Source: Ignavibacteriales bacterium (GTDB taxonomy: Bacteria > Bacteroidota > Ignavibacteria > UBA10030). From it: 64,000 nt of DNA. The stretch spans positions 197-64,196 of the forward strand of contig JACQBK010000044.1 of NCBI GenBank assembly GCA_016194505.1, written 5' to 3'. A program made the translations under genes and the position numbers. This document shows positions 3,623 through 64,000 of this stretch, piece by piece (the first letter of the stretch is position 1; every line of letters begins with the position of its first letter). The notes under the pieces are model-generated. The model was not told the DNA's origin and did no database searches. It was given only the letters and a program-made list of their open reading frames with translations.

Positions 3623-3634
3623 AGAGAAATGCCT

Positions 3635-4687
3635 TTAGGGTTGAACGGATACGGATCCACCTTCCTTCACAAACTGCTGACCCGTTGTAATGATGTCTTC
3701 AGAACCGGTTATTCCCGAGAGAATTTCCGTTCGGGAGTCTTGTTCTATGCCTATTTGAACTCGCACGCGCTTAGCGATGTTATTTTCAACCACGTAAACA
3801 TAATCGCCAGCCTCATCATGGAGAACTGCCATTGTCGGCAGTGTGAGGGAATTTGGTTTCTCATCAATAATAAGCGATACGCTGGCAAACATACCGGGTT
3901 TGATGCTGTAATCGTTGTTCATAATCCTCACTTCGATAGCCATGGTGCGCGTCGAAAGATCAATGGCCTGACTGGCGTTGGCGACAAACCCTCCATATTC
4001 TTTTCCAGGGAGAGCATCAAACGTAATAATCGCTCGTTTTATCTTTGCAACAAGTGGAATATTTTTTTCCAAAACGTTGACGATGATCTTGACGCTATCA
4101 ATGTCCATCAGCGTGAAGAGCACCGAATTATTCAGGTTGACCAACGAGCCGACATCCAAAAACCGCCTCGTAATATATCCTGGAAATGGAGCGGTAATGC
4201 GCGCATAGCTTAACTTGGTCGCTGCTGCCTCATAATTCGCCCTCGAAACCTTCATCGTTGCCTCGGCGTTATCCGCATCTTGCTTTGAAACAAGGCTTTG
4301 GCTGAAGAGCTGCATTGTGCGCTGGTAAATCATTCGAGCATTAGAAAAAGTCGCTGAGGTTTGCTGCACCTGTTGAAAAAGTTCCGTCGAATCTATCACA
4401 GCGAGGAGTTGGTTTTGCCGCACCTTCGCACCCATATCAGCATATAACCGTTCAAGGTTCCCGCTCACCTTTGAGAAAATGCCTGCCTGGCGAATCGCCA
4501 AGACATCTCCATTAAATGTTAATTTGTAGGTAATAACTTCCCGTTTCGGCTTTTCCATACGGACAAGCTGGGCATTTTGCCGGCGATTATCCGAAGCAGT
4601 TTTACCGACAATCAAGCGATAGGACGCTAAACCTCCAACTCCTAAAATTACAATGCCAAACACAATATATTTTAGAATTTTTTTCAT
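3635..4687 (-). CDS. RND/efflux periplasmic adaptor (membrane fusion protein, HlyD/AcrA family), 350 aa
   Basis: N-terminal TM/signal, coiled-coil hairpin region, then a beta-barrel domain. It sits immediately upstream of the RND pump. Confidence 0.85.
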   Translation of the reverse strand: MKKILKYIVFGIVILGVGGLASYRLIVGKTASDNRRQNAQLVRMEKPKREVITYKLTFNGDVLAIRQAGIFSKVSGNLERLYADMGAKVRQNQLLAVIDSTELFQQVQQTSATFSNARMIYQRTMQLFSQSLVSKQDADNAEATMKVSRANYEAAATKLSYARITAPFPGYITRRFLDVGSLVNLNNSVLFTLMDIDSVKIIVNVLEKNIPLVAKIKRAIITFDALPGKEYGGFVANASQAIDLSTRTMAIEVRIMNNDYSIKPGMFASVSLIIDEKPNSLTLPTMAVLHDEAGDYVYVVENNIAKRVRVQIGIEQDSRTEILSGITGSEDIITTGQQFVKEGGSVSVQP

Positions 4688-4714
4688 AAAATTTTCATAA
4701 TGAAAAACAACACG

Positions 4715-5932: not shown

Positions 5933-5942
5933 TATGTATTCC

Positions 5943-7520
5943 TTATCGCCTTCCTCCGCCACCAGTGCCGGTCGCGCTCCTTGCGGCGCCTCCACCCAAG
6001 CCACCCATGCTCTGCATACTTCTCATTCTGTCGTTCATTTGCTCCGCGGCAATTTTAGCGCGCGAGACCGTCGTTATTTGAATCTCGTCGCCTTCTTTCA
6101 AGCCATCGAAAACTTCCGAATAATCGAAATTGCTCGCTCCGACTTTAATAATCTTAGGAACGAACTGGTCTCCATCCTTCACGACAATCACACGTTGCTT
6201 GACCTCGTTTTCATTGCCCACTTGAGATTCTCTGCGCTGACGCATGCCGCCGCCGGCATCTCCACCGCCTCCAAACATCATAAAGCCTCCGCCGCCCTGA
6301 CCTTGACCATCGTTTCGTTGTTGCATCCGGTTCATGAGGTTTTGACGTTCTTCAGGGGACATTTTCGCCATGCGCTCTTGAAATTGTTGTCTCATCTGCG
6401 CTTGAAGTTTTTGACGCTCTTCAGGCGAAGCATTTTGCATCTTCTCTCTCATTGCGCGGAAATCCGTTCTAGTGCCACTGGCACTATCTGCGCTTTCTTT
6501 CTTTGCCGAATCGGCTTTTACCGCTCCTTCCTTCTTTTCAGCACCGCCATTTTGCTGAAAAGAGGCAAGCAACGCCCTTCCTGCTTCACTGCGGGGATCC
6601 TTCAATGCTTCATTAGGCACAAGCAATACCTGCTGGCGACGGAAAATCTCAATCTCAACCGACGTGCTCATCCCAGCTTTCAGCTTGCCTCCAATATTTT
6701 TGACGAGAATAATGACATTAAATGTAGTAACATTCTGTTGCGTTTTCCCTAATGGCGCAATCCGAACCACTTCACCTGGAAAAGAATCGTCCGGATAGGC
6801 ATCAGCCACGACTTTCGCTTGCTGCCCTACTTTCACTTTGCCGATATCAACCTCATCAACATTTGTTTCAACGTTCACTTCATCCATATTTGCAACCGTT
6901 GCAAGAATCGTCCCACCACCGACGTTGGAGACTCCGGAGGCAATGATCTGTCCGGGGTCAACGTTTTTGGTCAATATGACTCCTGAAGTAGGGGCTACAA
7001 TGCGAGTATCGCGTAAACGGTCTGCGGCAGAAGAAAGCGCGGCTTTCGCTTTGACAAGCTGGGATTGGGATCTTACGAAATCAACTTTTGATTGATCAAG
7101 TTCTTGAGGAGATATAAGCTTCTTTTCAAAGAGACCTTGAGCACGCTTGTAATTATTGTTAGATTGGGAAAGCGCCGCTTCTGCTAAAGCAAGGTCCGCT
7201 TTGGCTTGATCATGGTCATTTTTTGTCAAGGTCTGGTCAAGAGCTATTAACAGCTCTCCTTTTTTCACGGACTGTCCTTCGACAAAATTTAATTCGAGTA
7301 TCTGACCGCTTGCTTTCGATTTGATCTCAACCTTATTGATAGGCTGCACGACGCCGTTCGCCGATACGGAGAGATTGAGATCGCCCCGCATAACCTTTAT
7401 AATGCGCTGAACTTGCCCTGTCGGCACCGCTTCGACCTTTTTATTGTTGCCAAGGAAATAATACCCCAACCCACCGACAGCAACGACACCAATTGCAATA
7501 TAGATTATAAGCTTCTTCAT
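5943..7520 (-). CDS. Membrane fusion protein (MacA/HlyD family) with a long low-complexity Gln/Gly-rich insertion, 525 aa
   Basis: N-terminal TM, lipoyl/coiled-coil/beta-barrel adaptor architecture. It carries a ~130 aa insert with the repeated motif 'MSPEERQ(K/N)L' and GGGG tracts. Confidence 0.8.
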   Translation of the reverse strand: MKKLIIYIAIGVVAVGGLGYYFLGNNKKVEAVPTGQVQRIIKVMRGDLNLSVSANGVVQPINKVEIKSKASGQILELNFVEGQSVKKGELLIALDQTLTKNDHDQAKADLALAEAALSQSNNNYKRAQGLFEKKLISPQELDQSKVDFVRSQSQLVKAKAALSSAADRLRDTRIVAPTSGVILTKNVDPGQIIASGVSNVGGGTILATVANMDEVNVETNVDEVDIGKVKVGQQAKVVADAYPDDSFPGEVVRIAPLGKTQQNVTTFNVIILVKNIGGKLKAGMSTSVEIEIFRRQQVLLVPNEALKDPRSEAGRALLASFQQNGGAEKKEGAVKADSAKKESADSASGTRTDFRAMREKMQNASPEERQKLQAQMRQQFQERMAKMSPEERQNLMNRMQQRNDGQGQGGGGFMMFGGGGDAGGGMRQRRESQVGNENEVKQRVIVVKDGDQFVPKIIKVGASNFDYSEVFDGLKEGDEIQITTVSRAKIAAEQMNDRMRSMQSMGGLGGGAARSATGTGGGGRR

Positions 7521-12616: not shown

Positions 12617-12713
12617 AGTTATCTCCTCTCAAATGAGCCAAAGGCTCATCCCGCGAATGCGGGACAAGTTGTGCCTACGGCGCACAGTTGTGGTTTGTTT
12701 AAAAAGACTACTT

Positions 12714-12850
12714 GAGACCTCTGAATGATTAAATTAACTGTCACGGTGAGCGCCTGCCTGCCGCAGGCAGGGAGTCGAACCGTGATTTTGGATTAAATTC
12801 GCCCCTCGACTCCGCTCGGGGTGACGAATTTAGAATATTTCAGAGGTCTC
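12714..12850. repeat. Fold-back MITE-like element with perfect 12-bp TIR (gagacctctgaa / ttcagaggtctc) enclosing the 19-bp palindrome cctgcctgccgcaggcagg (12753-12771)
   Basis: Inverted termini at 12714-12725 and 12839-12850. The internal modules 'gtcacggtgagcgcctgcctgc..' and 'gtcaccccgagcgg' are shared with the element at 28217-28334. Confidence 0.6.
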
Positions 12851-12866
12851 TATTAGCTTCTTCACC

Positions 12867-20087: not shown

Positions 20088-20250
20088 TGAGGGGGCTAAA
20101 GCCCTTATTTCTTTTGGGTGTTGTTCCACCCCGACCTATCCCGCCATGCCTGCGGCAGGCAGGTTGTACGGGATGCTGAAAAACGCAAAGGTCGGGGTTA
20201 TTACGATACCTCTCCAGCCATAGTTATAACCCCGCCCTTTAGGGCGTGGG
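20088..20250. repeat. Mosaic palindromic repeat element inserted between sdaAB and sdaAA
   Basis: Components: hairpin gggctaaagccc (20093-20104); a long nested hairpin ccccgacct-atcccg-..gcctgcggcaggc..-cgggat-..-aggtcgggg (20129-20197); 'ttataaccccgccctttagggcg' (20224-20248). Modules are shared with the element at 34605-34854. Confidence 0.6.
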
Positions 20251-20328
20251 CACAATCGAGTACAATTCGGGTTTCAACCCTGAAAAAACCTGCCAAAAAT
20301 CATTTTTGAGATGGTTTCTACGTATACT

Positions 20329-22481: not shown

Positions 22482-22649
22482 CACCTGAAAAATAGATATA
22501 GTATGTATTTGCGAGGAGCTTGCCCGCCGTGGCGGGCGACGAAGCCTGTCCGCCGACAGGCGGGCAATCTCTCAATCAAAGGACAAATGGGATTGCTTCG
22601 TCGTCCTTTCAGGGCTCCTCGCAATGACTTTTTGTAAGTTACTCTAATC
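22482..22649. repeat. Degenerate copy of the MITE-like fold-back element family (opposite orientation to the 61906-62061 copy)
   Basis: The internal 38-nt block ggattgcttcgtcgtcctttcagg(g)ctcctcgcaatgac matches the reverse complement of 61930-61970. Ends are degenerate TIR-like (cacctgaaaaatagatata / ctttttgtaagttactctaatc). Long-range pairing ttgcgaggagc/gctcctcgcaa. Confidence 0.55.
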
Positions 22650-28199: not shown

Positions 28200-28216
28200 C
28201 CCTTCAATTTACCTAC

Positions 28217-28334
28217 AGTATCTCAAAAATGGGTTCTCAAAAGCAAAGTCACCCCGAGCGCCTGCCTGCCGGCAGGCGCTCACCATGACGGCGGGACTCA
28301 GTCTGACGGTCTTTTTTGGTATTTTTGAGATACT
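28217..28334. repeat. MITE-like fold-back element, 14-bp perfect TIR agtatctcaaaaat / atttttgagatact
   Basis: Termini at 28217-28230 and 28321-28334. The interior carries the gagcgcc-tgcctgccggcagg-cgctc palindrome (28255-28281). Confidence 0.65.
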
Positions 28335-28344
28335 TTTACTTGCT

Positions 28345-34604: not shown

Positions 34605-34854
34605 TTAGAAGCTATCTCAAAAAAATGCGCTAATAGTATTTTAAACGGGTTTGCGCTCGATGCGCACTTTTGCGCCATCTTTTGGGCGCATCCCTGCCTG
34701 CGACAGGCAGGCGCCTTCGGCGGAAAAACCCGTAATATTATTTTAACTTTTTGTCCACGTCCTAAAGGACGTGGTTATAACCCCGACCTTCAGGTCGGGG
34801 GAGAAGAAGAAAAAAGCAAGGGCTTTAGCCCTGATCAACAAAGATAGTTCTAAG
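34605..34854. repeat. Composite MITE-like element between the ubiD-like and ubiX-like genes
   Basis: Left TIR ttagaagctatctcaaaaaaa (34605-34625), identical over 19 nt to the TIR of the 61906-62061 copy. Degenerate right end gatagttctaag (34843-34854). Internal hairpins: cctgcctgcgacaggcagg (34693-34711), ccacgtcctaaaggacgtgg (34755-34774), ttataaccccgaccttcaggtcgggg (34775-34800), gggctttagccc (34820-34831). Confidence 0.6.
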
Positions 34855-43347: not shown

Positions 43348-43382
43348 GAGCCAAAGGCTCACCCCTGCCTGCGGCAGGCAAG
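43348..43382. repeat. Palindromic repeat module: gagccaaaggctc hairpin plus cctgcctgcggcaggcaag palindrome
   Basis: The same two modules occur at 12635-12647 and in the other cctgcctgc..gcaggcagg sites. Confidence 0.55.
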
Positions 43383-43395
43383 CGCCTCTGGCGGA

Positions 43396-51983: not shown

Positions 51984-52002
51984 AAGTTCCCCCTTATGCT
52001 CT

Positions 52003-52557
52003 TCATTCTCTATAGGTCTTCACATAGTCAATATAATTCTGCGCAGATTGGGCGAGACCTTCCTTTTCTTCTTCGGTCAGCATTCGTTTGATTGTAGCCG
52101 GAACCCCGGCGACAAGCGCACCTTCCGGCACGACAAAATCTTCAAGCACTAACGCCCCAGCGGCAACGAACGCGTACGGCCCAACGATTGCATTATCTAA
52201 CACCTTCGCACCCATACCGATTAAGCAATAATCCTTCACCGTCGCGGCATGAACAATCGCACCGTGCCCGATAGTTACGTTGGAGCCGATATGGAGCGGA
52301 TATTTTTCGTGTGTGACATGCAAGACGCTGTTATCTTGGATATTCGTCCGCTCGCCGATTCTAATATAATGCACATCCCCTCGAATAACTGTGTTGAACC
52401 ACACACTGCTATCCCGACCTATTTCGACATCGCCGATAATGCGCGCCCCATCCGCAATAAAAACCGACTCGTGAATTTTCGGGGTGATACCCCGATACGT
52501 AATAATCAATTGCCGCCCTCGACATATTTTGGCGGCTGCCATCCGGGACGATTCCAC
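52003..52557 (-). CDS. Gamma-class carbonic anhydrase / hexapeptide-repeat (YrdA/PaaY/CaiE) family protein
   Basis: Left-handed beta-helix hexapeptide repeats with His ligands (..GHGAIVHAATV..). The start is probably internal, given the overlap with the upstream gene. Confidence 0.75.
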   Translation of the reverse strand: MESSRMAAAKICRGRQLIITYRGITPKIHESVFIADGARIIGDVEIGRDSSVWFNTVIRGDVHYIRIGERTNIQDNSVLHVTHEKYPLHIGSNVTIGHGAIVHAATVKDYCLIGMGAKVLDNAIVGPYAFVAAGALVLEDFVVPEGALVAGVPATIKRMLTEEEKEGLAQSAQNYIDYVKTYRE

Positions 52558-53393
52558 TTCATAAGCTGGATTTTGATACTACCGAGAATGACGTTCATTC
52601 TCGCAACAATGGGAACTCTTGCATCATCATTGCTGAACCAACCGCGAAATCCGCCTGTCATTCCAAAGACTCCCACATAATCCGCTTTGCCATCAAATGC
52701 AATCACATCAACAGGATAGTCAACGGCATCAATATCCATATCCGTTCGCTTGTTCATAAAATTGATGAGCGTTGAGACTTGCTTATTTTCGATGAACGTG
52801 GGCACGCTCATTTGCGTTTTCTCCAGCACATGTTCGCGGGCATAGAAAAATAATGAAAATCCATCTTGGCACTTTTCCGTTACCTTCACAGTGTCAATGG
52901 ATTCTACTTTTCTTTCACCCGTAGGGAGTTTTTTGCCCTTCTCGTAGAGCAACCGATTTTGGTCATAATCAAAATTGAACCTGCGGAAATTGATTTCCTT
53001 CTTGGAGCTATCGTCGCCTACCCAGCCATACGAAAACACGTCCTCATCCATTTCAGTAGCAAAACGAATATGAAGCTCTACGAGCCAATCCAAGCTTGGA
53101 TTGGAATCAATAATCGCATTGGCTTTGTACACCGTGCGACCGTTGCGCTGCTCTTTATCATGAACCTGTATTCTGATGCTGCCTATGGTAAAGAACGAAT
53201 AGCTGACTTTATATTCCAACTCTTCACCAACCTGGAGCATTGCGCTCCGAAATCGAGGCACAGTTGGGCTGATAGGCGCTTCGGTAGCAGAAGTATCGGA
53301 AAGAAACCCGATAATCAAAATAACAGCAACGAATGAAAATAGAATAGACTTAGTAGTCACCGATGAGCGGATAAACTTCCCCCAATAACTCAT
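52506..53393 (-). CDS. Hypothetical secreted beta-rich protein (DUF3108-like?), 295 aa
   Basis: Signal/TM N-terminus. No catalytic motif; the family assignment is tentative. Confidence 0.4.
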   Translation of the reverse strand: MSYWGKFIRSSVTTKSILFSFVAVILIIGFLSDTSATEAPISPTVPRFRSAMLQVGEELEYKVSYSFFTIGSIRIQVHDKEQRNGRTVYKANAIIDSNPSLDWLVELHIRFATEMDEDVFSYGWVGDDSSKKEINFRRFNFDYDQNRLLYEKGKKLPTGERKVESIDTVKVTEKCQDGFSLFFYAREHVLEKTQMSVPTFIENKQVSTLINFMNKRTDMDIDAVDYPVDVIAFDGKADYVGVFGMTGGFRGWFSNDDARVPIVARMNVILGSIKIQLMKWNRPGWQPPKYVEGGN

Positions 53394-53397
53394 GCGC

Positions 53398-55041
53398 TTA
53401 GTTTAACCTCGCGATCTTTGCCGCTTCAGGAAACAACTCTATGGCTTTCTTGAACTGATTGTCAACGGTAAGCATCAAAGGATACCAGCCTTCATTGCCC
53501 CAGAAACTGCGAGAGATTGTCGCCTTGAGCCGTATCTTCAGATACGGAAGGCTTTCCTGGTATTCCTTTTCATCAATCTTCACTTCTTTTTTCTCGACGA
53601 ACGAGCGGAAGCGCTTCATCATATCATCATCAATCGAGAATGATTTATTGAAGAGCTTAAAATCCTTGCCGTACTCCGACCGTAATTTTTGCCCTGCCCC
53701 ATCAAGGTACGCGATGACAAATTGATTAAGCAAATCACGACGTAAGATAGCGAGCGCGGTCGGCGTTAAATTGTGATTCTTCACGACATAGTCCGGAGTA
53801 ATGCCGCCCCCACCATAGACCACTCTGCCTGACTGCGTATGGAATACCGGACGGCTTGAATCACCCTCGGCTTTATGATCTATGTTTTCACCTTCGGATT
53901 CTTTCCGCTCGAATGCTTCGCGATTGTACGCGCCCTTTTCTTTACCTTCGTATGATCGTTGTATCAAACGACCGCTTGGCGTATAATACCGCGCGATAGT
54001 TAATCTCAAAGCGGAGCCATCGGATAATTTCCACTGACGCTGTACGAGTCCTTTGCCGAATGTCGTCTCGCCAACGATCAATCCCCTATCCCAATCTTGC
54101 ATTGCGCCGGCAACGATCTCGCTTGCACTTGCTGAGGCATTGCTTGTCAAAATAATCAGAGGGAGATTCTCGTACGGTTCACCCGACTTTGCAAAGTACG
54201 ATTCATCAAATTCCGGTTTCCGACCTTTCTGGTAGACAATTTTATGAGGAGCCTCTTTCGTCCCTCCATCCAAAAATAAATCTGCCATCTGGACGGCTTC
54301 TTCCAAATAGCCACCTGGATTGAAGCGTAAATCCAGCACTAATTTTTTCATTCCCTGCGATTTCAATTTGGTTAGAGCCGCTCCCATTTCCCGATGTGTG
54401 GGTTCGGCAAACTTATTGACGCTGATATAGCCGACATCTTCGCCTACCATCACAGCTATATCTACGCTGTTGATAGAGATTTCATCCCGAATAATTTCAA
54501 AATCGAGAGGTTCTTTTACTTCCGGACGGGCGATGGTAACTCTGACTTTCGATCCCTTCGGTCCCCGCAGGCTTTGCAATACTTTATTATTCGTGTAGCC
54601 AATAGCAGATGTGTCGTTGATCTTTACAATTCTATCATTTGAAAGAATCCCAAGACGTGCCGAAGGTCCGCCACCGAAAGTTTCCATAACAATAATAGTA
54701 TCATTAAAAATGCGGAAGGCAACGCCAATGCCCTCAAATTTTCCCTTAAATTCCTCCGATGCTTGCTGAAATGCGACCGGGGGAAAATAGGCAGAATGCG
54801 GATCGAGCTTATCCAGAAGACCGTTCACCGCCGCCTCAGTAAGCTTGGGGGTATCAACCTGCTCGATATAGTATTTCTCTGTCAGGCTCAGTACTTCTTT
54901 AAATTTATTGATTTGGTCATACATCGTATCGCCGGAAACGAGTTGGTTAATACCCATTCCAGCAAAAATACTAACAACCATTAATCCAATGACCGTCCAG
55001 AGTGAAAATTGTATCTTCTTCATCTTATTAGTCTCTCTCAC
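53398..55041 (-). CDS. ctpA: S41 family C-terminal processing (tail-specific) peptidase
   Basis: PDZ domain, then the catalytic Ser/Lys region (..GGYLEEAVQMADLF.., ..ILTSNASASASEIVAGAMQD). 547 aa. Confidence 0.9.
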   Translation of the reverse strand: MRETNKMKKIQFSLWTVIGLMVVSIFAGMGINQLVSGDTMYDQINKFKEVLSLTEKYYIEQVDTPKLTEAAVNGLLDKLDPHSAYFPPVAFQQASEEFKGKFEGIGVAFRIFNDTIIVMETFGGGPSARLGILSNDRIVKINDTSAIGYTNNKVLQSLRGPKGSKVRVTIARPEVKEPLDFEIIRDEISINSVDIAVMVGEDVGYISVNKFAEPTHREMGAALTKLKSQGMKKLVLDLRFNPGGYLEEAVQMADLFLDGGTKEAPHKIVYQKGRKPEFDESYFAKSGEPYENLPLIILTSNASASASEIVAGAMQDWDRGLIVGETTFGKGLVQRQWKLSDGSALRLTIARYYTPSGRLIQRSYEGKEKGAYNREAFERKESEGENIDHKAEGDSSRPVFHTQSGRVVYGGGGITPDYVVKNHNLTPTALAILRRDLLNQFVIAYLDGAGQKLRSEYGKDFKLFNKSFSIDDDMMKRFRSFVEKKEVKIDEKEYQESLPYLKIRLKATISRSFWGNEGWYPLMLTVDNQFKKAIELFPEAAKIARLN

Positions 55042-55158
55042 TAAAAGTTACAGGTTTTACCCCTTTAAATTCTATATTTATTGCATAAAATAACGAAAAT
55101 TGGCATAAAATCAAAGAGAAAGCTATAAACATTTGATTTCGATTTAGAAACGGCACTT

Positions 55159-57699
55159 TTAAAATTCCAGACGTAATCCAATGCGTGTGCGGCGCGGGTC
55201 GTAATATGCGCTCGGATCGGAAAGCTCGCCGCCCACTCTCCCGCTTGAATCAATCCAGCGAATATTTTTAGTATTCAGAAGATTCCTAATATCGGCATAG
55301 ACCGTAAAAACATACCGTCCAGCTTCATCCAAAACCATTTGTTTGGATACTTTTAAATTCACAAATGTGACATTTTCCATGCGCGCATTGTTGGGCAAGA
55401 ACGCTTTCCCAGGATCAATTGGCGTAAAACCATCTCGTGTCGGATAAAGAGTATATGGACGCGGTGAATTATACAAAACGATAAGATTCGATTGAATATC
55501 GTAAGGCAATTTAAAATCAAGGTCAAGCTTGATGGTATGGCGTTGATCCCAGCTTAAGGGGTAGGGCTTTGCCGCAAGCGGGAATCCCCACTGAGCATAG
55601 TTTATCGTCTGATCAACATATTCACTGACGCCTTCCGTTATCATATACGAGTATGAAATACTGCCGGATAGCCGCTCGTCCCGCTCTCTGCTCAAAACAA
55701 ACTCCAATCCTGAAGCCTCTGCCTCCGCGTTATTGACATACGACGCAAACCCATAATCCCCCGCGGATTTGCTATCGAAGGGAATAAGTGTTTTTGAATC
55801 AATCTGGTTCTTGAACGATTTGCTAAAATATGTCAACGAAGCAACCATGTTTTCATTGATACCATGCTTGAAACCCAATTCCCAAGCAACCGTCCGCTCA
55901 GGATCCAAATCGGGATTTCCCGTCAAGACATTGCGCGCACCTTGTCGCAATTGAGCAGGATTGATGCCGGAGTATAAATAATCAAACAAAGGGAATTGAA
56001 AATAATGTCCGAAATTAGCAAAGAAAAAACTCGATGGACCAACCGGAGCCGCAATACTTATACGGGGACTGAGTTGTTGCTTAAATCTTGCTTTCACCCT
56101 TCCGGTAACCTGTTGCTTGAATTCAGTTTGGCTTACCGGTACATATTCGACAATGGGGCGCTCGGCTGTAGGATCAAGGAAATCCCAACGCAGACCGACA
56201 CTAAAATTGGAGCCGTCGCGTACCAATTCCACTTTATCTTGAATATAGATACTCCCCGACCGTGGAAAATATTTATAGGTATTGCTAAAATTCAGTAACG
56301 GAGCCTCGGTGATGGGTTTGCCGAAATACGTCGTTTGCGGCTCATATTTTACCAGATCAGAATAGATACTGTATTGGTTCACCTCTACGCCAACCCGGAG
56401 AAGGTGAATCTTCTCGTATTGCGTTGTGTAATCTCCCTTCAATGCATAAATGGTTTGCTTCGTTTCCGCCCACCAATTTCGCTGACCGTTGACAATATAG
56501 CGCAGGTAAAAATCATATTCGAACGGATACAACGATAAATCCTCTTTTGCTCCATCACCAATTCTCGAATGCTGATAAAATGCGCTGAGACTTAATGAGT
56601 AGAACGAGCTTTGTGAAAGCGTTTGCGAGAGAATGACGGCACCTCGCACCGCATCCCGCGAGCGAAGAGGTAGACCATTCAAATTGAACCGCCAGCTGAA
56701 TTCATAATCGTGCCATTTTCTCAACGAATAAATGCCTTGGGCACTTATTTTGAACGTCGGTGAATACAGATAATCTAATTTCGCAAAGCCCGTCAACTCT
56801 TGACTTACGGGTGATGAGAAGAAATTTTGAAAATCCTGCCACCAGCGCGTATCGCTCATGATATACGTATTTGCTGTAAAATAATAAAGCTCGCCGGGTA
56901 CAATAGGTCCGCTGGCAGAAGCTTCTATTTCCGTTGACCGATCCTGCTGTTTATTGGTACTGCTGGGCAACCAGCTATCTCTATCCACTCGCACCGCAAA
57001 CAGGTGCTTGTTGCCTCCGCTTTTGGTAATGACATTGACGACACCGGACATTGCGTTGCCGTATTCAGCATCGAACCCACCCGTCTGGATGGTCATGCCG
57101 GTAATGGAGCTTTTCGGAAGATTCGTTCCAACCCCGCCTCCGATGACATCTTGCACCGGAAGTCCATCCACTAGAAAGACAACTTCGTTCGTTTTTCCGC
57201 CGCGCACGTTTCCTTCGATCGTCGTTCCCGGCAGTAATCCGAGAACTTCTTTGAATGAGGAAACCGGCAGTTTTTCGAGCTTGATTTCACCGATAGAATA
57301 AGCCGTTGCGGCGAGATCTTTTTGTATCAGGGGGCGCTCGGCACGGACTTCGACCGCCTCCAACTCTACCGAGGATTGCTCCAAATCAAGGTCAATGCGG
57401 GTACGGAGATCCGGCAGAATGGTAACCTTCTTCATTATAACAGTTTTATAGCCTACCATGCTGAAACGAACATCATAGACACCTGCCCGTAAATTGCTTA
57501 CGCGATACACACCATCGGCATCAGTTATTGATCCGTATTGTGTGCCAACAATTGCGATATTGACTCCGATGAGATTTTCTTTGGTCTGCTTATCCCGTAT
57601 CCTTCCTTCAAGGATACCGGTGGTTCCCCGCCATGGGGTGGCGGAAGCTTCTCCACACAACAAAACTACGATTGCTAGGAGGGTGGCAATGTGTTTCAT
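55159..57699 (-). CDS. TonB-dependent outer-membrane receptor with CarboxypepD_reg-like N-domain, 846 aa
   Basis: Signal peptide, CarboxypepD_reg (GRIRDKQTKENLIGVNIAIVG), plug, and a barrel ending ..IGLRLEF. Confidence 0.9.
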   Translation of the reverse strand: MKHIATLLAIVVLLCGEASATPWRGTTGILEGRIRDKQTKENLIGVNIAIVGTQYGSITDADGVYRVSNLRAGVYDVRFSMVGYKTVIMKKVTILPDLRTRIDLDLEQSSVELEAVEVRAERPLIQKDLAATAYSIGEIKLEKLPVSSFKEVLGLLPGTTIEGNVRGGKTNEVVFLVDGLPVQDVIGGGVGTNLPKSSITGMTIQTGGFDAEYGNAMSGVVNVITKSGGNKHLFAVRVDRDSWLPSSTNKQQDRSTEIEASASGPIVPGELYYFTANTYIMSDTRWWQDFQNFFSSPVSQELTGFAKLDYLYSPTFKISAQGIYSLRKWHDYEFSWRFNLNGLPLRSRDAVRGAVILSQTLSQSSFYSLSLSAFYQHSRIGDGAKEDLSLYPFEYDFYLRYIVNGQRNWWAETKQTIYALKGDYTTQYEKIHLLRVGVEVNQYSIYSDLVKYEPQTTYFGKPITEAPLLNFSNTYKYFPRSGSIYIQDKVELVRDGSNFSVGLRWDFLDPTAERPIVEYVPVSQTEFKQQVTGRVKARFKQQLSPRISIAAPVGPSSFFFANFGHYFQFPLFDYLYSGINPAQLRQGARNVLTGNPDLDPERTVAWELGFKHGINENMVASLTYFSKSFKNQIDSKTLIPFDSKSAGDYGFASYVNNAEAEASGLEFVLSRERDERLSGSISYSYMITEGVSEYVDQTINYAQWGFPLAAKPYPLSWDQRHTIKLDLDFKLPYDIQSNLIVLYNSPRPYTLYPTRDGFTPIDPGKAFLPNNARMENVTFVNLKVSKQMVLDEAGRYVFTVYADIRNLLNTKNIRWIDSSGRVGGELSDPSAYYDPRRTRIGLRLEF

Positions 57700-57757
57700 G
57701 TGAGTTCTTCCTTTCTATTTTCCTTAGGAGGTACCTAAAATAATAAAAGTATTTGAC

Positions 57758-57917
57758 TAGAACCTATCTCAAAAATATCATACAATCTTCCAACGGTTCA
57801 AAACTTTGTACGTAGAGCGAACTTTAGTTCGCTAACCCATTTTGGCAGCTGAAGCTCGCCCTACAATGTACCCCAGCCGACAGAGGCCCTTTCTCTCTGT
57901 TTTTGAGATGGCTTCTA
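57758..57917. repeat. MITE-like fold-back element (TIR tagaacctatctcaaaaa / tttttgagatggcttcta) between paralog 1 and the TonB-dependent receptor
   Basis: TIRs at 57758-57775 and 57900-57917. Internal palindrome agcgaactttagttcgct. The right TIR abuts the stop codon of the paralog-1 gene. Confidence 0.65.
57770..57777 (-). promoter_or_regulatory. Candidate FCB-type -7 promoter box (TAnnTTTG as TATTTTTG) carried by the MITE TIR, oriented toward the TonB-dependent receptor gene
   Basis: The minus strand reads ..TTTTG-N21-TATTTTTG ~75 nt upstream of the receptor ATG (57699). The motif is intrinsic to the TIR sequence. Confidence 0.3.
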
Positions 57918-58643
57918 ATGAATAACCCCACCTTCCTGACCCGGACAACCCTCCGGATCGAAACCATCGGGGTGATAAGGTTTATGAATATTTTCCGGAT
58001 ACAAGCCACAATGTTCCGATGTCATGATCGGAGGACAACAATTGGAAGTAACATATCTACTCACGAAACAAAGCGAATACCTAACAGGTCCGAAGTACAC
58101 AGGCGCTCGCTGATCGTAAATTTTGAGTTCCCCTCTGAGAATAAAATCTTCGGTGTACGCCAAACCACGAGAGATACCATGTGTTTTTAAAATATCACAA
58201 GTTGAATCCACGATATACCGAAAGAATTGAGTCCGAAGGTCTTTACCATTATCATCCGCCTTAAAATCCCACTGGATGCCGAGACGAATCGTATCCTGTG
58301 GGTCAATCAAGAGCATGCCTGAGTTTCTATCATAGCCGGGAGCGCGAATAACGTTACTTGGACCGATAGCAAAGGTCTTCCTAATTGAGGGGTCGCTTAC
58401 TGAAACAATTTCAATGCTTCCTTTTAATATCCCCGGTGCCTGAAAGGTTTCGTCAAAAATGTTTCGCACAATTAATTGAACACTCATCACATTTTGAACA
58501 ACTGAAAGAATATACGAAGGCTGTATGGTGCCTTCAAATATCTTATCCGGCGCTTGGTAGGTCGGCAGTGACTCGTCGCAGGGTCCAAGCGAGAGGCTTA
58601 CGAGAGCAAGAATACAAATTAAAAATAATGTATGTCTCTGCAT
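57915..58643 (-). CDS. Secreted Cys-containing protein, paralog 1 of a tandem lineage-specific family (unknown function)
   Basis: Signal peptide MQRHTLFLICILALVSLSLG, then the conserved PCDESLPTYQAPDKIF..RNIFDETFQ..WDF..AYTED.. core. The C-terminus is extended relative to paralogs 2 and 3. Confidence 0.6.
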   Translation of the reverse strand: MQRHTLFLICILALVSLSLGPCDESLPTYQAPDKIFEGTIQPSYILSVVQNVMSVQLIVRNIFDETFQAPGILKGSIEIVSVSDPSIRKTFAIGPSNVIRAPGYDRNSGMLLIDPQDTIRLGIQWDFKADDNGKDLRTQFFRYIVDSTCDILKTHGISRGLAYTEDFILRGELKIYDQRAPVYFGPVRYSLCFVSRYVTSNCCPPIMTSEHCGLYPENIHKPYHPDGFDPEGCPGQEGGVIH

Positions 58644-58656
58644 GTTATTCTCTCCT

Positions 58657-59289
58657 TTAATGGGGATATCTAAAGGGACAATTCGCTGTAAACGGAAATG
58701 GAAGAGGAGGACATTCTTGAGGATCACCCACTATATAGCAAAAACTATGCAAAATAGGAACACCTCGTATAATACCCGTCTTCTCAAAGACCGTTATTTC
58801 TCCACTGATAATAACATCTTCCGTATAAGCTATTTTTTGTGTCCTGCATGCCGGATTCTCCCATACGCGAAAAAAATCTGTCAGGAGATTACTGCCCTTG
58901 TCGTCGGTGAAATCCCATGTCACTCCAACGCGAATGGTATCTCCCGGGTCTATTGTCAGTATGCTCGAGATGGGATTATAGTCTTTCGCCTTGATAAGAT
59001 TTGCAACGCTGAGCTTAAATGTTTTGTGAATGCTTGAGTCTCTTGCCGAAGTAATTTGGATGGTTCCGCGCAGTATGGCTTTAGATTGAATAGTTTCGTC
59101 AAAAATATTGCGCACATGTATTTGGACAAAAAAACCGTTGAGCACCTTGGTCACAACATAAGAAGACACCATCGTCGCATCAAATATTTTTTCCGGCTCT
59201 TTATATGTGGGCAATGACTCGTCGCACGGTCCGAATGAGAGACTCATGAGTGCAAGAATATAAAATAAGAATATTGTATATCGTTGCAT
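58657..59289 (-). CDS. Secreted Cys-containing protein, paralog 2
   Basis: MQRYTIFLFYILALMSLSFGPCDESLPTYKEPEKIF... ends ..ECPPLPFPFTANCPFRYPH. Confidence 0.6.
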   Translation of the reverse strand: MQRYTIFLFYILALMSLSFGPCDESLPTYKEPEKIFDATMVSSYVVTKVLNGFFVQIHVRNIFDETIQSKAILRGTIQITSARDSSIHKTFKLSVANLIKAKDYNPISSILTIDPGDTIRVGVTWDFTDDKGSNLLTDFFRVWENPACRTQKIAYTEDVIISGEITVFEKTGIIRGVPILHSFCYIVGDPQECPPLPFPFTANCPFRYPH

Positions 59290-59302
59290 GTCGTTTTCTC
59301 TT

Positions 59303-59929
59303 CTATTGAGGATATCTGAAAGGACAGTTGGCGCTAAACGGAAATGGACTACAGCTTTGGGGGTCTCCAGTGACATAACAAAAACTATGAAGGATTGGGG
59401 GAGCTTTTGTAATCCCGGTTTTTTCAAAAACTCTCATTTCTCCACTAATCATGAAATCTTCAGCATAAGCGATACTTCGTCCTTTACATTGCGGATCGGG
59501 TACAATTCGAAAAAAATCTGCTAAAAGATCTCTCCCTGTGTCATCTTTGAAATCCCACAAAACGCCCAAACGAATGGAATCTCCGGAGTTAAAGGTTAAA
59601 GTGTTTGTGACTTGATCATATCCCGGAACGTAAAGAAACAGTATTTCTGAAATGTTAAATGTTCTTTTAATACTAGGATTTCTCATCGAAGTTATTTGAA
59701 TCATGCCTTGAAAAGCGGGTTTCGCTTGAAAAGTTTCATCAAAAACATTACGTATTTTCAATTCAACAAAGAAGTTATTTCGAGTTGCCGTAACAACGTA
59801 TGATGACGCCAGCGCTGCATCAAATATTTTCTCCGGCTCTTGGTATGTGGGTAAAGATTCATCACAAGGGCCAGATGAAATGCTGAGGAGTGCTGTTAGA
59901 AGAACAGCTAGAATCGTTTGTTGTTTCAT
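59303..59929 (-). CDS. Secreted Cys-containing protein, paralog 3
   Basis: MKQQTILAVLLTALLSISSGPCDESLPTYQEPEKIF... ends ..SCSPFPFSANCPFRYPQ. Confidence 0.6.
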   Translation of the reverse strand: MKQQTILAVLLTALLSISSGPCDESLPTYQEPEKIFDAALASSYVVTATRNNFFVELKIRNVFDETFQAKPAFQGMIQITSMRNPSIKRTFNISEILFLYVPGYDQVTNTLTFNSGDSIRLGVLWDFKDDTGRDLLADFFRIVPDPQCKGRSIAYAEDFMISGEMRVFEKTGITKAPPILHSFCYVTGDPQSCSPFPFSANCPFRYPQ

Positions 59930-60174
59930 AACATGATCCAGTGCGTATTGGAAAATATATTAATGTACCTTCTATGAGCGTCAAAGGTTACGTGATTCCG
60001 TTGAAAGGTTTCATCAAACACATCTGTAACGGTCGAGTACACGTTCAACGCGTTGACATCGTGGTGAAGGGCATATTCACCCTCTATTCTTCCTTGGAAG
60101 ACTCGCTGGGGTTCTTCGTACAGTGGCAAGGGTTCTTCGCAAGACCATACGCAAACAGCAAAGCACACCATCAT
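59926..60174 (-). pseudogene. Decayed fourth paralog (82 codons): N-terminal conserved core only, truncated signal peptide, divergent tail
   Basis: MMVCFAVCVWSCEEPLPLYEEPQRVFQGRIEGEY..TDVFDETFQ matches the family core. Only 12 aa of hydrophobic leader remain. The ORF stops after ~60 conserved residues. Confidence 0.4.
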
Positions 60175-60267
60175 TGCGAATGGTATGGAAGAAATGAAAA
60201 ACTGCCGGTGTCGGAAATGAGTTATTGTATCAATGATCGGTAAGCGTCTCCCTCGGATTGAATATGG

Positions 60268-61809
60268 TTATTTTTCCGGTTTCATTTGGGGAAAGAAAAT
60301 GACATCCCGTATGGAATCCTTATTTGTCAACAGCATTGTCAATCTATCAATACCGATACCGATTCCCGCGGTCGGGGGCATCCCGTATTCTAAGGCGCGG
60401 AGAAAATCTTCATCAATCATCTGGGCTTCCTCATCGCCGCGGGCGCGAAGTTTCATTTGTTCCTCGAATCGCGCTCGCTGGTCAAGGGGATCGTTCAATT
60501 CCGAAAAAGCATTGCAAATTTCTTGTCCATTGACAATCCCTTCGAAACGCTCTACGAGTCCTTGCTCGCTGCGGTGCTTCTTTGCCAAGGGGGACATTTC
60601 AACAGGGTAGTCCGTAATGAACGTGGGTTGAACCAGATAGTGCTCCACCCTCGTGCTGAAAATCTCGTCAATGATACCACCGACACCAATGGTAGGCTCA
60701 AGCTCGACATGCAATTCTTTTGCGATTGCACGCAACTCGGCTTCCAATTTACCGCGAAGGTCTTTACCCGTGTATTCTTTAATGACATCAAACATTGAAA
60801 TTCTTTTCCACGGAGGCGTGAAGTTAATTTCGTGTCCGCCTAAAACCGCCGTGGGCTTGCCGTTCACGGCCATAGCAATTTCGTAAATCGCTTGCTCGGC
60901 TAATTCCATCATCCAACGATAATCTTTGTATGCAACGTACAGCTCAAGCATGGTGAATTCGGGATTATGCGTCCGATCCATTCCTTCGTTGCGGAAGTCT
61001 TTTGAAATCTCATACACGCCGTCAAATCCTCCAACGATAAGCCGCTTTAAGTACAACTCGTCCGCTATACGTAAATATAAATCTATGTCATGCGCATTAT
61101 GATGCGTTTTGAACGGACGCGCCGATGCACCGCCGTACATCGGTTGAAGGACTGGCGTTTCGACTTCGGTATAATTCCTCGTATCAAAAAATTGGCGGAA
61201 CGTGCTGATAATTTTTGACCGCTTGATAAAAACCTCGCGCACGTCCGGATTCACGACAAGGTCAACATAGCGCTGGCGATACCGAAGCTCTTTGTCGGAA
61301 AAAGGGTCATAAACGACTTTGTTCCCTTGCTCATCCACTTTCTCCTTCACTATGGGCAGAGGCCTCAGAGATTTTGAAAGAAGCACAAGACTTTGGGCAT
61401 GAAGAGAGACTTCGCCCATCTTCGTTCTGAAAACGAAACCCTTTACGCCAACAATATCGCCAATATCCATTAACTTGAAGGCGTCATACATTTGCCCGAG
61501 ATCATCTTTCTTTAGGTACATTTGAATTTTGCCATGAGAATCCTGTAAATGGCAAAACGACGCCTTGCCCATTCTCCGCAGCGACATAATACGACCTGCC
61601 ACCGAAACGGTGCGAACCGGGGCATCGTCTTTAAAGCTTTCGATAATCTCTTTGGAAAAATCATTCCGGTTAAACTCATGAGGATAAGGATTCAATCCGA
61701 GTTTTCTAAGTTCTTCAAGCTCTTCGCGGCGACGAATCATCAAAACGTTTAAATCTTCATGTTCCTGAGGCTCAAGTTGCCGGGGAATATTCTTTTGGTC
61801 ATCAGTCAT
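60268..61809 (-). CDS. lysS: Lysyl-tRNA synthetase, class II
   Basis: N-terminal OB anticodon-binding domain; class II motifs 1-3 (..[18 protein letters not shown].., ..[11 protein letters not shown]). 513 aa. Confidence 0.97.
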
Positions 61810-61905
61810 AAAACCCGTCTTTTCGTTGAATACTTATTAAATACAACAATGGCTCCTCGCTACTCAATGGAGAGCAAGCAGTTTCGCCAAATTCTCTTTA
61901 AGATA

Positions 61906-62061
61906 CTAGAAGTTATCTCAAAAACCTCGGTCCGTCGTCATTGCGAGGAGTCCTGAAAGGACGACGAAGCAATCCTATAGTTTGAAAAGAATTAAAGTTA
62001 GATTGCTTCGCAAAAAACGCTCGCAATAGCAATTTTATGTATTTTTGAGATAGCTTCTAAA
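61906..62061. repeat. Best-preserved copy of the MITE-like fold-back element family (TIR ctagaagttatctcaaaaa / tttttgagatagcttctaa)
   Basis: 19-bp TIRs at 61906-61924 and 62043-62061. Nested inverted pairs inside (cgtcgtc/gacgacg, attgcgag/ctcgcaat, gaagcaatc/gattgcttc) predict a long fold-back. Length ~156 bp. Confidence 0.7.
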
Positions 62062-62085
62062 TAAGTTATAGTAGAAGCAAACTGC

Positions 62086-63627
62086 TTACGGTAAATGTTT
62101 TCCGGCAGGATATGCGGGTAATTCTAATCGTTCGGTTGAAGTCCTCCCGAAAAGGGCAGTGCTTTCATACATTTTCAACGCATGTTCCGAATGGACTTGG
62201 CTCCAGGAAAACCGCCACTCCCAATTCCCCAACGCTGTTCCGGGAAAGTTCATACGACCTTCGGTGCCAAGCCCAAGAACATCCTGAAAAGGAACAATAG
62301 CTAAATCCGCCACTGATTTTAACGCAAGCCGAATAAGGTCCCAATGGATATTGTTGCCGTCGGCACATACATATTTATGCACAAACGCACGTTCCCGTTC
62401 GGTGGCGGTATTGAACCACCCGCGCGTAGTGTCGTTATCGTGCGTGCCGGTATACACAACGGAATTATGTTCGTAATGATGAGGAAGGAAACCACTTTCA
62501 GGTCCGGCGGCAAATGCGAATTGCAAAACTTTCATGCCGGGGAATTCAAATGTATCGCGCAATTTTATGACCTCAGGGGTAATAAGCCCCAAGTCTTCCG
62601 CGATGATGGGTAACTTGCCGAGCTTTTTCTCTACGGCTTTGAATAACTTTTCTTTCGGTCCGGGCACCCAGCGGCCACGCACGGCAGTTTTTTCCGACGC
62701 GGGTATTTCCCAATATGCATCGAACCCGCGGAAATGGTCAATGCGGGCAATATCAACAAGCCATAATGTCCGGCGAAAACGCTCAACCCACCACCGGTAT
62801 TTATCTTCTTCCATCTTATCCCAACGATACAATGGATTCCCCCACCGTTGACCCGTTCTGCTAAAATAATCCGGAGGAACGCCTGCAACAACGGTTGGCT
62901 TTCCGTTTTCATCGAGAGAAAATAATTCCTGCCGAGACCAGACATCTGCGCTGTGATGAGCCACGAAAATGGGAATATCGCCTACGATCTTGATTCCCCG
63001 CTCGTTGGCATATTTTTTTACTCTCGCCCATTGTTGGAAAAAGAGCCACTGGGTGAATTTCCAAAAACGGATTTCACTTTCTAACTCTTTGCGGGCGCTC
63101 GTAAGAGCTTCAGGTTTTCGCTGCGCGCATGCGCGATCCCATTTGGTCCATTCAACATCTCCAAAGTGATCATTCAGCGCTTTGAACAGGGAGTAATCTT
63201 CCAGCCAACCGTTTTGCTCGGCGCAAAATTTTTCGAAATCATCTATGTCTCGGGATTTCTTTTGCGAAAAACATCTCTCAGCAGCAATGCGAAGCCGCTG
63301 CAACCGGTAAGGAATAACTTGCTGGAAGTCAACTTTATTCGTCGGGAAATCGGGTAGCGGCGCAACCTCGGCTTGTGTGAGCCAACTTTTAGCAAGTAAT
63401 TCTTCAAAACCAATAAGCAATGGATTACCGGCGGAAGCAGAAAGGCTCATATAGGGAGAGTTGCCGTACCCTGTCGGCTCAAGAGGAAGCACCTGCCATA
63501 CTTTTTGTCCAGCAACGACAAGCCACTCGATGAAATGCAATGACACATCGCCAAAATCACCGCAACCGTACGGTCCGGGAAGAGAGGTTGGGTGCAACAA
63601 AATTCCACTACTACGAGGGAAACGCAT
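62086..63627 (-). CDS. malQ: 4-alpha-glucanotransferase (amylomaltase, GH77)
   Basis: N-terminus MRFPRSSGILLHPTSLPGPYGCGDFG and GH77 catalytic regions. 513 aa. Confidence 0.95.
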   Translation of the reverse strand: MRFPRSSGILLHPTSLPGPYGCGDFGDVSLHFIEWLVVAGQKVWQVLPLEPTGYGNSPYMSLSASAGNPLLIGFEELLAKSWLTQAEVAPLPDFPTNKVDFQQVIPYRLQRLRIAAERCFSQKKSRDIDDFEKFCAEQNGWLEDYSLFKALNDHFGDVEWTKWDRACAQRKPEALTSARKELESEIRFWKFTQWLFFQQWARVKKYANERGIKIVGDIPIFVAHHSADVWSRQELFSLDENGKPTVVAGVPPDYFSRTGQRWGNPLYRWDKMEEDKYRWWVERFRRTLWLVDIARIDHFRGFDAYWEIPASEKTAVRGRWVPGPKEKLFKAVEKKLGKLPIIAEDLGLITPEVIKLRDTFEFPGMKVLQFAFAAGPESGFLPHHYEHNSVVYTGTHDNDTTRGWFNTATERERAFVHKYVCADGNNIHWDLIRLALKSVADLAIVPFQDVLGLGTEGRMNFPGTALGNWEWRFSWSQVHSEHALKMYESTALFGRTSTERLELPAYPAGKHLP

Positions 63628-63633
63628 AATATT

Positions 63634-64000
63634 TTATTTTACACCAGCCAGTTCTCGAAGATGTTGAACTTCCGAATTTTTGAGATTCCGCCATTCCCCC
63701 CGCGACAAGCCTTCGGTCGTCAATCCGGCAAACAAAATCCGCTCCAATCCTTTCAACTCGTACCCAAGCTCTTCGAACATACGGCGCACTTCGCGGTTGC
63801 GCCCTTCACCGAGTGCAAGAACAATTTCTGCTCGCTTTGTGCCGGGGATAACCGCAACATCCTTAGGCTTCGCAAGTCCATCCTCTAACCGAACTCCCCG
63901 TTTCAATGCAACAAGGTCTTCATCAAGAAGACCGCTCTCTAAACGCACACGATACACGCGCTCGATTTCGTTCTTTGGATGGATAAGCCCATTCGCAAGC
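63634..64000 (-). CDS. rluB: Pseudouridine synthase, RluB/RsuA family, C-terminal part (gene continues beyond window end)
   Basis: ..GRNREVRRMFEELGYELKGLERILFAGL.. conserved C-terminal region. The ORF remains open to the window edge. Confidence 0.8.
   Translation of the reverse strand, partial: LANGLIHPKNEIERVYRVRLESGLLDEDLVALKRGVRLEDGLAKPKDVAVIPGTKRAEIVLALGEGRNREVRRMFEELGYELKGLERILFAGLTTEGLSRGEWRNLKNSEVQHLRELAGVK

Follow-up and report, generated by a model that had tools for sequence, protein, structure and literature searches.

Within the 64-kb window analysed here (64,000 nt of an Ignavibacteriales contig), positions 57760–57915 are occupied by a 156-bp element that, judged from its sequence, is essentially certain to be a MITE. 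Our overall reading, to which we assign a probability of roughly 55%, is that this MITE derives from an IS5-family element, that it recently entered the stop codon of a lipoprotein gene, that its promoter-like box is a fossil of transposase codons and that it is now a passenger in a transcription unit that is read through. A transposase of the NF033580 clade, acting in trans, most probably moved the element by cut-and-paste into a Y-TA-R site, where the TA became duplicated; this site is the stop codon that ends the final lipoprotein gene in a lipoprotein–TonB-receptor array. The element would most likely be a tolerated passenger, with transcription still running from the lipoprotein genes into the receptor gene and with the RNA of the element predicted to fold into a hairpin structure closed by the TIRs. 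It may in addition contribute a transcription start through two motifs of a relaxed promoter type.

Anatomy and insertion site of the element

The element is directly flanked by TA on each side (57758–57759 towards the receptor gene and 57916–57917 towards the lipoprotein gene), and positions 57758–57917 read TA-GAACCTATCTCAAAAATA ... TGTTTTTGAGATGGCTTC-TA. Its TIRs are 16–20 bp long, with the sequence GAAGCNATCTCAAAAA, and share a 16-nt core with two mismatches, both of which fall at variable positions. In minus-strand order the 156-bp body runs from an IRL-type end (GAAGCCATCTCAAAAAC) to an IRR-type end (TATTTTTGAGATAGGTTC). The IRL-type TIR (57896–57915, GAAGCCATCTCAAAAACAGA on the minus strand) was identified by the core pattern and the inverted repeat, and the IRR-type TIR (57760–57779, minus strand), which includes a TA at positions 19–20, corresponds to the IRR seen in the autonomous IS copies described below from Leptospira weilii, a Saprospiraceae genome and metagenome loci. 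A repeat finder placed the inverted arms at 57753–57775 and 57900–57922 (repeat I3), and this inverted repeat is far beyond chance. Shuffled sequence would yield 0.30 matches to the core pattern TAGAAGCNATCTCAAAAA; the window has six, located at both ends of 57760–57915, at both ends of 61907–62059 and singly at 20303–20320 and 34606–34623. The element has no coding capacity, the sole overlapping ORF being the tail of the lipoprotein gene, and no Rfam family matched any part of the window at gathering threshold.

Counting related copies, the 64 kb contain two copies that are intact, one with short TIRs and one that has decayed, along with a solo end. The second full copy (61907–62059, plus strand, repeat I7) lies between the lysyl-tRNA synthetase and 4-alpha-glucanotransferase genes. 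As the initial annotation had pointed out, it carries the same TATTTTTG on the plus strand in its right TIR (62040–62047), where the motif points to the glucanotransferase gene at its 3' end. The corresponding spacer of the relative L002 contains no TIRs, and the spacer of a 76% relative was too diverged in alignment with the second copy for a base-by-base empty site. The short-TIR relative (AGTATCTCAAAAAT / ATTTTTGAGATACT, plus strand) spans about 28214–28337, also delimited as 28217–28334, between convergent genes (repeat I17). In the plus-strand copy at 34606–34852 the left TIR is intact, the right one has decayed (AAAGATAGTTCTAA, read by eye) and the interior is taken up by other palindromic modules; the solo TIR (TAGAAACCATCTCAAAAA, minus strand) occupies 20303–20320 and matches the core pattern. 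In each of the two intact copies, one end is of IRR type (CAAAAATA) and the other of IRL type (CAAAAAC). Their interiors share nothing, that of 57760–57915 is unique in the window, and several window copies are filled with other small palindromic repeats.

The receptor gene downstream of the element (55159–57699, minus strand) encodes a TonB-dependent receptor with Pfam Plug, TonB_dep_Rec_b-barrel and CarboxypepD_reg domains; it has orthologues at 92–93% identity, and its best database relatives include sequences labelled Ignavibacteriales and Bacteroidota. The three ORFs upstream of it are paralogs with 40–46% identity and are probably lipoproteins, since they show a signal peptide and a cysteine followed by Asp-Glu-Ser. 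Paralog 1, which adjoins the element, extends over 57915–58643 on the minus strand; its ORF continues to 58727, and the likely start is the methionine at 58643, where the paralog alignments begin (MQRHTLFL).

Relatives that lack the insertion, the comparison proposed in the initial annotation, define the insertion site to the base. L001, with a receptor 93% identical, has the same gene order and 57 nt between the last lipoprotein gene and the receptor gene, and in L128, with a receptor 92% identical, this spacer measures 52 nt. In alignment with both genomes the two flanks match and 158 extra window bases drop out at a single TA. The junctions read TAT TAA gcaaat in L001, CGT TAG ttaat in L128 and CAT TA[GAAGCC...GGTTC TA]G TCAAAT in the window, and the stop position of paralog 1 is TAA in L001 and TAG in L128. 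This alignment argues firmly that the element entered the TA of the paralog-1 stop codon and duplicated it, and that the element's own G rebuilt TAG. The stop codon of the window (57915–57917, minus strand) thus consists of the duplicated TA and the first G of the element, and the lipoprotein is therefore unchanged. The right TIR had been described as ending exactly at this TAG; the location holds, with the correction that the TIR overlaps the stop codon by one base and does not merely abut it. Because relatives with receptors 92–93% identical have an empty site, the sequences also argue strongly for a recent insertion. More distant relatives (L002/L004, L212 and L214) have spacers of 108, 48 and 40 nt, respectively, with no TIR, and an exact-junction scan of JGI metagenomes returned no orthologous occupied site. 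The description of a MITE copy between the paralog array and the receptor gene is thus borne out by the empty sites, the TA duplication, the IS5-type TIRs and the many copies. What the initial annotation stated about the sequence itself proved correct throughout.

The TIR family, its parent and the origin of the box

Scanning one genome per species for both TIRs at a distance of 95–125 nt yielded at least 120 stretches. These two-TIR copies come from many phyla, and most of those listed are 143–149 nt long. The listed hosts are mainly Desulfobacterales and also include Cytophagales, Chitinophagaceae, Pontibacter, Acidobacteriota and Alpha-, Beta- and Gammaproteobacteria, among them Cellvibrio and Pleionea isolates; an Ignavibacteriaceae MAG carries a copy, and a Kerfeldbacteria genome (candidate phyla radiation) is likewise among the hosts. 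The flanks follow the pattern Y-TA...TA-R, with T or C before TAGAA in 104 of the 121 listed copies and A or G after TTCTA in 88 of them, and across these 121 copies the duplicated bases are TA only. A duplication of 4 bp (CTAG) or of 3 bp would fit just 14/121 listed copies and was rejected. Canonical family members form long hairpins with compensatory changes at 25 of 42 pairs, and the canonical 146-nt members possess a central core, TCAAAATGCTCACRTAC-N4-GTRTGCTCCGC, which is missing from the window copies. A full-text literature search for the TIR sequence found no paper quoting it, so the TIR family itself may be undescribed.

The parent was recognised through plasmids. A 32-nt TIR probe matched Leptospira records in which the TIR adjoins an "IS5 family transposase". 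The IS on L. weilii pDO6 is about 863 bp long (CTAGAACCCATCTCAAAAATACC ... GGTTTTTGAGATGGGTTCTAG), with the same ends and TA flanks, and contains two ORFs that overlap and are linked through an A7G slippery run. These ORFs correspond to DUF4096 and DDE_Tnp_1, and their fused product, assembled by hand across the frameshift junction, reaches 226 bits against NF033580 (cut-off 110). An IS-sized pair of the same TIR, 820–932 bp with TA flanks, was present at 56 of 80 metagenome loci encoding transposases 45–70% identical. A Saprospiraceae genome, a host from the Fibrobacteres-Chlorobi-Bacteroidetes (FCB) group, contains an 830-bp IS copy with the same ends and a protein ending in ..LLRYF*. The transposase clade comprises 7977 proteins at E<=1e-20 from many phyla. 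Autonomous copies were not seen in the 64-kb window; a search for IS-sized TIR pairs in the 120 listed genome loci returned only adjacent MITEs, and blastn of a Desulfobacterales copy against plasmids gave no match.

These comparisons strongly support, as the parent, a clade of 820–932 bp IS5-family elements with TAGAAGCCATCTCAAAAA-type inverted repeats and a two-ORF, frameshifted DDE transposase (NF033580). We take NF033580 (transpos_IS5_3) elements to be IS427-like, that is, about 0.8–0.9 kb long with two ORFs, a -1 frameshift and a 2-bp TA duplication. The window element shares with them identical TIRs, TA flanks of the form Y-TA-R and the same asymmetry between IRL and IRR (CAAAAAC.. versus CAAAAATA..), whereas it measures only 156 bp, contains no transposase remnant and has an interior unrelated to the IS. 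The ends would be conserved across phyla because of a shared, widely transferred transposase clade, and the interiors would differ because MITEs arise or decay independently in each lineage.

The parent also accounts for the octamer TATTTTTG, which the initial annotation had read as a -7 box of TAnnTTTG type. The transposase ORF stops at a TGA within TTTTTGAGAT in 48 of 58 parent IS copies, and the transposase C-termini follow the pattern ...ILLR-[Y/F/H/Q/R]-[F/L]-stop; the coding end of the Saprospiraceae copy is CTC AGG TAT TTT TGA. In this frame TATTTTTGA reads as Tyr-Phe-stop (TAT TTT TGA), a fossil of the last codons of the transposase. Because the parental reading frame ends inside the right inverted repeat, the evidence argues strongly that the TATTTTTG motif is inherited coding sequence and not a promoter adaptation. 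The TTTG half of the box is fixed because it belongs both to the TIR and to a codon, and the TA half is set by the penultimate codon, the invariant TIR contributing TTTTTG only. This TA (positions 19–20) occurs at 3 of 8 ends in the window, at 79 of 242 ends of the listed family copies (33%) and at 16–17% of autonomous IS ends. The proposal that each copy could donate an outward promoter fails here, since the TA that completes the box is variable and is found at only about one third of the ends.

Promoter-like motifs upstream of the receptor gene

On the minus strand, the octamer TATTTTTG (-7-like) occupies 57777–57770 and a TTTG (-33-like) occupies 57802–57799, with a spacer of 21 nt. Counted back from the receptor ATG at 57699, the octamer extends from 78 to 71 nt upstream, which confirms the position of about 75 nt that had been given for it. 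The TTTG is confined to the interior that is unique to this copy. Overall, the MITE supplies two relaxed-type motifs, TTG-N21-TATTTT internally and TTG-N18-TACTTT across the element end and the flank, and the pattern TTG-N17-23-TAnnTT has no match in the lipoprotein–receptor spacers of five distinct relatives. As judged by these pattern matches, the insertion did create promoter-like sequence where relatives have none. In a scan of 52000–64000 for sigma-70 promoters and terminators, the counts were comparable to those of shuffles and the element contributed nothing of use. The single sigma-70 match (TTGACT-17-TATCAT) lies on the plus strand and points into the element.

We then considered whether the lineage reads such a motif. 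The window contains 41 strict TAnnTTTG octamers and its shuffles 47.7 +/- 6.8, which is not beyond chance. In sense orientation it was found in 0/37 upstream regions from the window and relatives versus 6/43 in a Cytophagia control (p = 0.028), a comparison made with MITEs masked and ATG-only gene calls, on a small sample and with crude calls. The octamer matches of the control were seven sense and one antisense. An earlier version with longest-ORF gene calls was underpowered, with just 4/35 regions in the Cytophagia control, and was repeated with the ATG-only calls. For the relaxed pattern TTG-N17-23-TAnnTT, 13/37 regions matched in sense versus 3/37 in antisense, with the same small sample and crude calls; the spacers were 19–20 nt in 10 of 14 upstream matches, and the window, L001 and L002 all keep a relaxed motif before the S41 peptidase gene. 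Transcription start mapping in Chlorobaculum yielded TTG-N17-23-TA[ATC][ATC][AT]T, and its RpoD groups with that of Bacteroidetes (preprint 10.1101/172254).

The sense bias of the relaxed pattern, in agreement with Chlorobaculum from the sister group Chlorobi, suggests that the lineage probably uses an FCB-like but looser promoter. TTG-N21-TATTTT would fit this looser promoter with an off-mode spacer. The motif could thus be recognisable in the host, given the similar motif and the Bacteroidetes-like RpoD of Chlorobi. The match to FCB promoter architecture that had been claimed for the element is sound in motif and spacer (17–23 nt), but the strict octamer does not seem to be a general promoter feature of the lineage (0/37). 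A literature search for TAnnTTTG together with Ignavibacteria found no paper with both.

A promoter function for the receptor is possible on these motifs. In its most direct form, an internal FCB-type promoter (-33 TTTG, 21 nt, TATTTTTG) would drive the receptor gene from about 57764, independently of the lipoprotein array. We consider this unlikely. In its favour, both motifs face the receptor ATG from the stated positions, the relaxed pattern is sense-biased in the lineage and conserved before the S41 peptidase gene in three genomes, Chlorobaculum provides a similar RpoD motif (10.1101/172254), the spacers of relatives carry no such motif, and promoters borne by ISs or MITEs have precedents in Correia, BrickBuilt, IS1186 and IS1168. 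Against it, the strict octamer is neither enriched in the window nor present in the 37 lineage upstream regions, and a 21-nt spacer occurs in 0/14 lineage motif matches, for which the mode is 19–20. The TA is a variable relic of a Tyr codon and the -33 element is specific to this copy. Moreover, the box at other ends mostly points towards the 3' end of a gene, and the element has no terminator to uncouple the receptor.

There is also a broader proposal, in which every IRR-type end, as it encodes Tyr-Phe-stop, would be a ready-made -7 box for FCB sigma factors, the MITEs would act as portable promoters, the excess of TATTTTTG ends in FCB hosts would be a trace of selection and the copy at 57760–57915 would drive the receptor uncoupled from the array. 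The excess exists: TATTTTTG ends account for 19/34 (56%) in FCB hosts versus 62/212 (29%) elsewhere (p = 0.003), and for 16% in autonomous IS copies. This could reflect selection rather than founder effects, but a founder effect is the simpler reading because the copies are not independent. For two window copies, the second one and that at 28217–28334, the gene ahead of the box is convergent and the box points at its 3' end. Among FCB-hosted box-bearing ends near a gene, 13/15 face 3' ends and 2/15 face 5' ends, compared with six and six among FCB ends without the box (p = 0.09). A TTG at 17–23 nt accompanies 4 of 19 boxes, not far from the roughly 11% that we estimate for chance. Nothing here indicates that the family is used, or has been selected, as a source of promoters, and we regard the broader proposal as improbable.

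Still less probable is a hybrid promoter, in which the invariant TTG of the TIR would serve as -33 and the native TACTTT of the spacer (57751–57746, minus strand) as a candidate -7, with a start about 40 nt before the ATG. The TTG–N18–TACTTT arrangement is present as a sequence match, with the TTG 12 nt from the outer boundary of the element and TACTTT ending 46 nt before the ATG; a TTG is found at both ends of every copy, and fusion promoters from IS ends are well documented. However, an 18-nt spacer occurs in 1/14 lineage matches, the geometry is seen at 1/33 FCB ends and 9/210 other ends, which is the rate at control offsets, and the motif is low in information content.

Transcriptional context and known systems

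The genes for the lipoproteins and for the receptor or receptors follow each other at 2–108 nt in six relatives, with 40–108 nt between lipoprotein and receptor genes; a long gap occurs only upstream of the array. Judged by this spacing, the lipoprotein genes and the receptor gene look like one operon. Neither strand of 57758–57917 contains a terminator-like site (GC-rich stem and U-run). The suggestion that the element decouples the receptor from the upstream array is unsupported, given the lack of a terminator-like site and the operon-like packing in relatives. Read-through with a hairpin in the message would be the default expectation.

For the minus-strand RNA, the predicted fold pairs the TIRs around a branched interior (-63.2 kcal/mol, z = -2.97). 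A role at the RNA level, in which the hairpin closed by the TIRs would serve as a site of processing, as a 3' stabiliser or as a partial terminator and shift the lipoprotein:receptor ratio, could draw on this fold, which is followed by a U-rich spacer, and on the compensatory changes in the canonical family hairpins. Cleavage of the element, or stabilisation of the mRNA by it, is known for ERIC and Correia elements. Nevertheless, we give this role only a slim chance, as no terminator-like stem with a U-run was found in the element, the U-rich stretch begins about 10 nt past the stem and the interior of 57760–57915 is unrelated to the canonical hairpin.

Finally, there is next to no chance that the element is not mobile at all and represents a regulatory palindrome, a REP/BIME-like host repeat, an integron attC or a small RNA gene: its conserved ends and varying interiors superficially resemble attC or BIME mosaics, but it shows presence/absence polymorphism at a duplicated TA, its ends exactly match those of IS copies with a transposase gene, the window has no Rfam match and no attC R'/R'' cores could be read in the sequence. 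The empty sites and the IS match rule out attC and REP/BIME.

The preferred reading, a tolerated IS5-derived passenger, has parallels in several characterised systems. Correia elements (CREE/NEMIS) of Neisseria generate a TA duplication and contain strong promoters, according to reviews. Like the window element, they are MITEs of 100–160 bp with promoter elements in or at their ends and are co-transcribed into hairpin RNA, which for the window element refers to the predicted fold. They differ in having another TIR and a parent transposase that is unknown, and their sigma-70 promoters have been shown experimentally, whereas the motifs of the window element are sequence matches. BrickBuilt, from Porphyromonas gingivalis, combines IS5-like TIRs with promoter activity directed outward or in both directions, from which expression of an adjacent gene has been proposed (PMC4596501). 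It is, similarly, a strictly intergenic Bacteroidota MITE with IS5-family-like TIRs, and is set apart by its TIR sequence (GAGACCTTTGCA), a 23-nt minisatellite and promoter activity measured in E. coli (PMC4596501).

The IS5-family elements IS1186, IS1168 and IS1169, together with IS4351, provide outward promoters that activate cfiA, nim and erm in Bacteroides. The first three resemble the present case in that IS5-family ends act as -33/-7 type promoters for downstream genes in FCB hosts; all four differ in being full-length ISs of other subgroups, with activation demonstrated under antibiotic selection. The Chunjie MITE found in Geobacter uraniireducens, as far as it is described in a review (PMC10969869), sits inside an operon that is read through with a hairpin in the message. 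According to that description it shares with the window element recent activity and a position within an operon that is not destroyed, and it differs in length (178–235 bp) and family (PMC10969869). A MITE of about 150 bp from E. coli and Klebsiella (with GAGCCTGGTCC TIRs) and Rfam sX9 (RF02228) have their central core in common with the canonical 146-nt members, but have other TIRs and a TAA duplication, and the window copies are without that core.

Promoters borne by MITEs and ISs are already well established, and the biology of the present element is conventional. Matches to TAnnTTTG carried in TIRs call for caution and should be taken for promoters only where transcript data support it. 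If the promoter were real, the element would be one more MITE rewiring an outer-membrane uptake operon, with the twist that recycled transposase codons would be readable only by FCB-type sigma factors. The present value of the finding lies mostly in annotation. It names a parent (IS5/NF033580, ends TAGAAGCCATCTCAAAAA) for a very widespread TIR family, gives a reason why the ends are conserved across phyla and the interiors are not, and documents a clean insertion into a stop codon with the stop regenerated.

A central core in MITEs with IS5-type ends

The canonical members of the terminal inverted repeat (TIR) family, MITEs of ~146 nt with TIRs of the IS5-family (NF033580) type, have a common central core, TCAAAATGCTCACRTAC-N4-GTRTGCTCCGCTTTT, among the matches listed (stretches L005–L124, scanned in one genome per species). 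Examples are found at L019:2553–2696, L040:1927–2072, and L100:4266–4409, and the loci L127:252–400 and L125:232–392 also belong to this observation. The listed hosts of core-bearing canonical members belong to the Desulfobacterota and Proteobacteria, together with one Bacteroidetes MAG. In these members the core is enclosed by a long hairpin, with compensatory changes at 25 of the 42 pairs. A ~150-bp MITE of E. coli and Klebsiella carries this core as well but has other TIRs (GAGCCTGGTCC...) and a TAA duplication. This element was present in 5426 of 5426 E. coli genomes (median of five copies), and its presence in the hemE-nfi interval is polymorphic. A single core is retained in MITE families whose IS5-type ends differ. 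Comparison of the core with the Rfam family sX9, a Xanthomonas sRNA, gave 39 bits, just under the 44-bit threshold.

Palindromic modules of spacers and MITE interiors

Short palindromic modules, rich in GC and of the form GCCTGCCTGC-N-GCAGGCAGGC, are numerous in the intergenic spacers of the window and are repeated from spacer to spacer (12748–12773, ~20140–20165, 28256–28281, ~34690–34715, and 43363–43387). These same palindromes are contained in a distinct 149-nt element at 12708–12856, which is bounded by 23-nt inverted repeats of its own type (CTACTTGAGACCTCTGAATGATT / AATATTTCAGAGGTCTCTATTAG) and may represent a second MITE family. A second module, GTCGTCATTGCGAGG...CGACGAAGCAATC, occupies the interior of MITE copy 2 (61937–61975) and recurs at 22590–22628 with 97% identity. 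In Cytophagales and Chitinophagaceae genomes (L052, L057, L067, and L112), MITE interiors are occupied by similar CATTGCGAG/GAAGCAATC modules.

Insertion at the stop codon of a lipoprotein gene

Comparison of window positions 57915–57917 with the empty sites of two close relatives (L001, 5139–5141; L128, ~320–322) identified the TA of the lipoprotein gene stop codon as the MITE target. The insertion was protein-silent because the terminal G of the element regenerates the TAG stop. The copy number of the lipoprotein paralogs differs among close relatives. The window array (57915–59929) is composed of three paralogs and one receptor, and that of L001 (1868–8419) of five paralogs, a receptor, one paralog, and a second receptor. 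The L212 array (381–7041) contains three paralogs, a receptor, three further paralogs, and a second receptor; L004 carries two paralogs and L002 one. A Pfam search of these paralogs returned no match. Their signal-peptide Cys is followed by Asp-Glu-Ser, similar to a surface-lipoprotein export signal of Bacteroidota.

Promoter-like motifs

A sigma-70-like TTGACT-17-TATCAT at 57753–57781 (plus strand), built from the flank and TIR of MITE copy 1, is directed into this copy, antisense to the lipoprotein gene, and is probably without meaning in this Ignavibacteriales lineage. The S41 (CtpB-like) peptidase gene is preceded, at a distance of 50–63 nt, by a promoter-like TTGATTTT-N-TA(T/A)TTT with a 19-nt spacer (~55085–55114, minus strand), conserved in three genomes (the window, L001, and L002). 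No other single feature indicates the promoter type of the lineage as well as this motif does.
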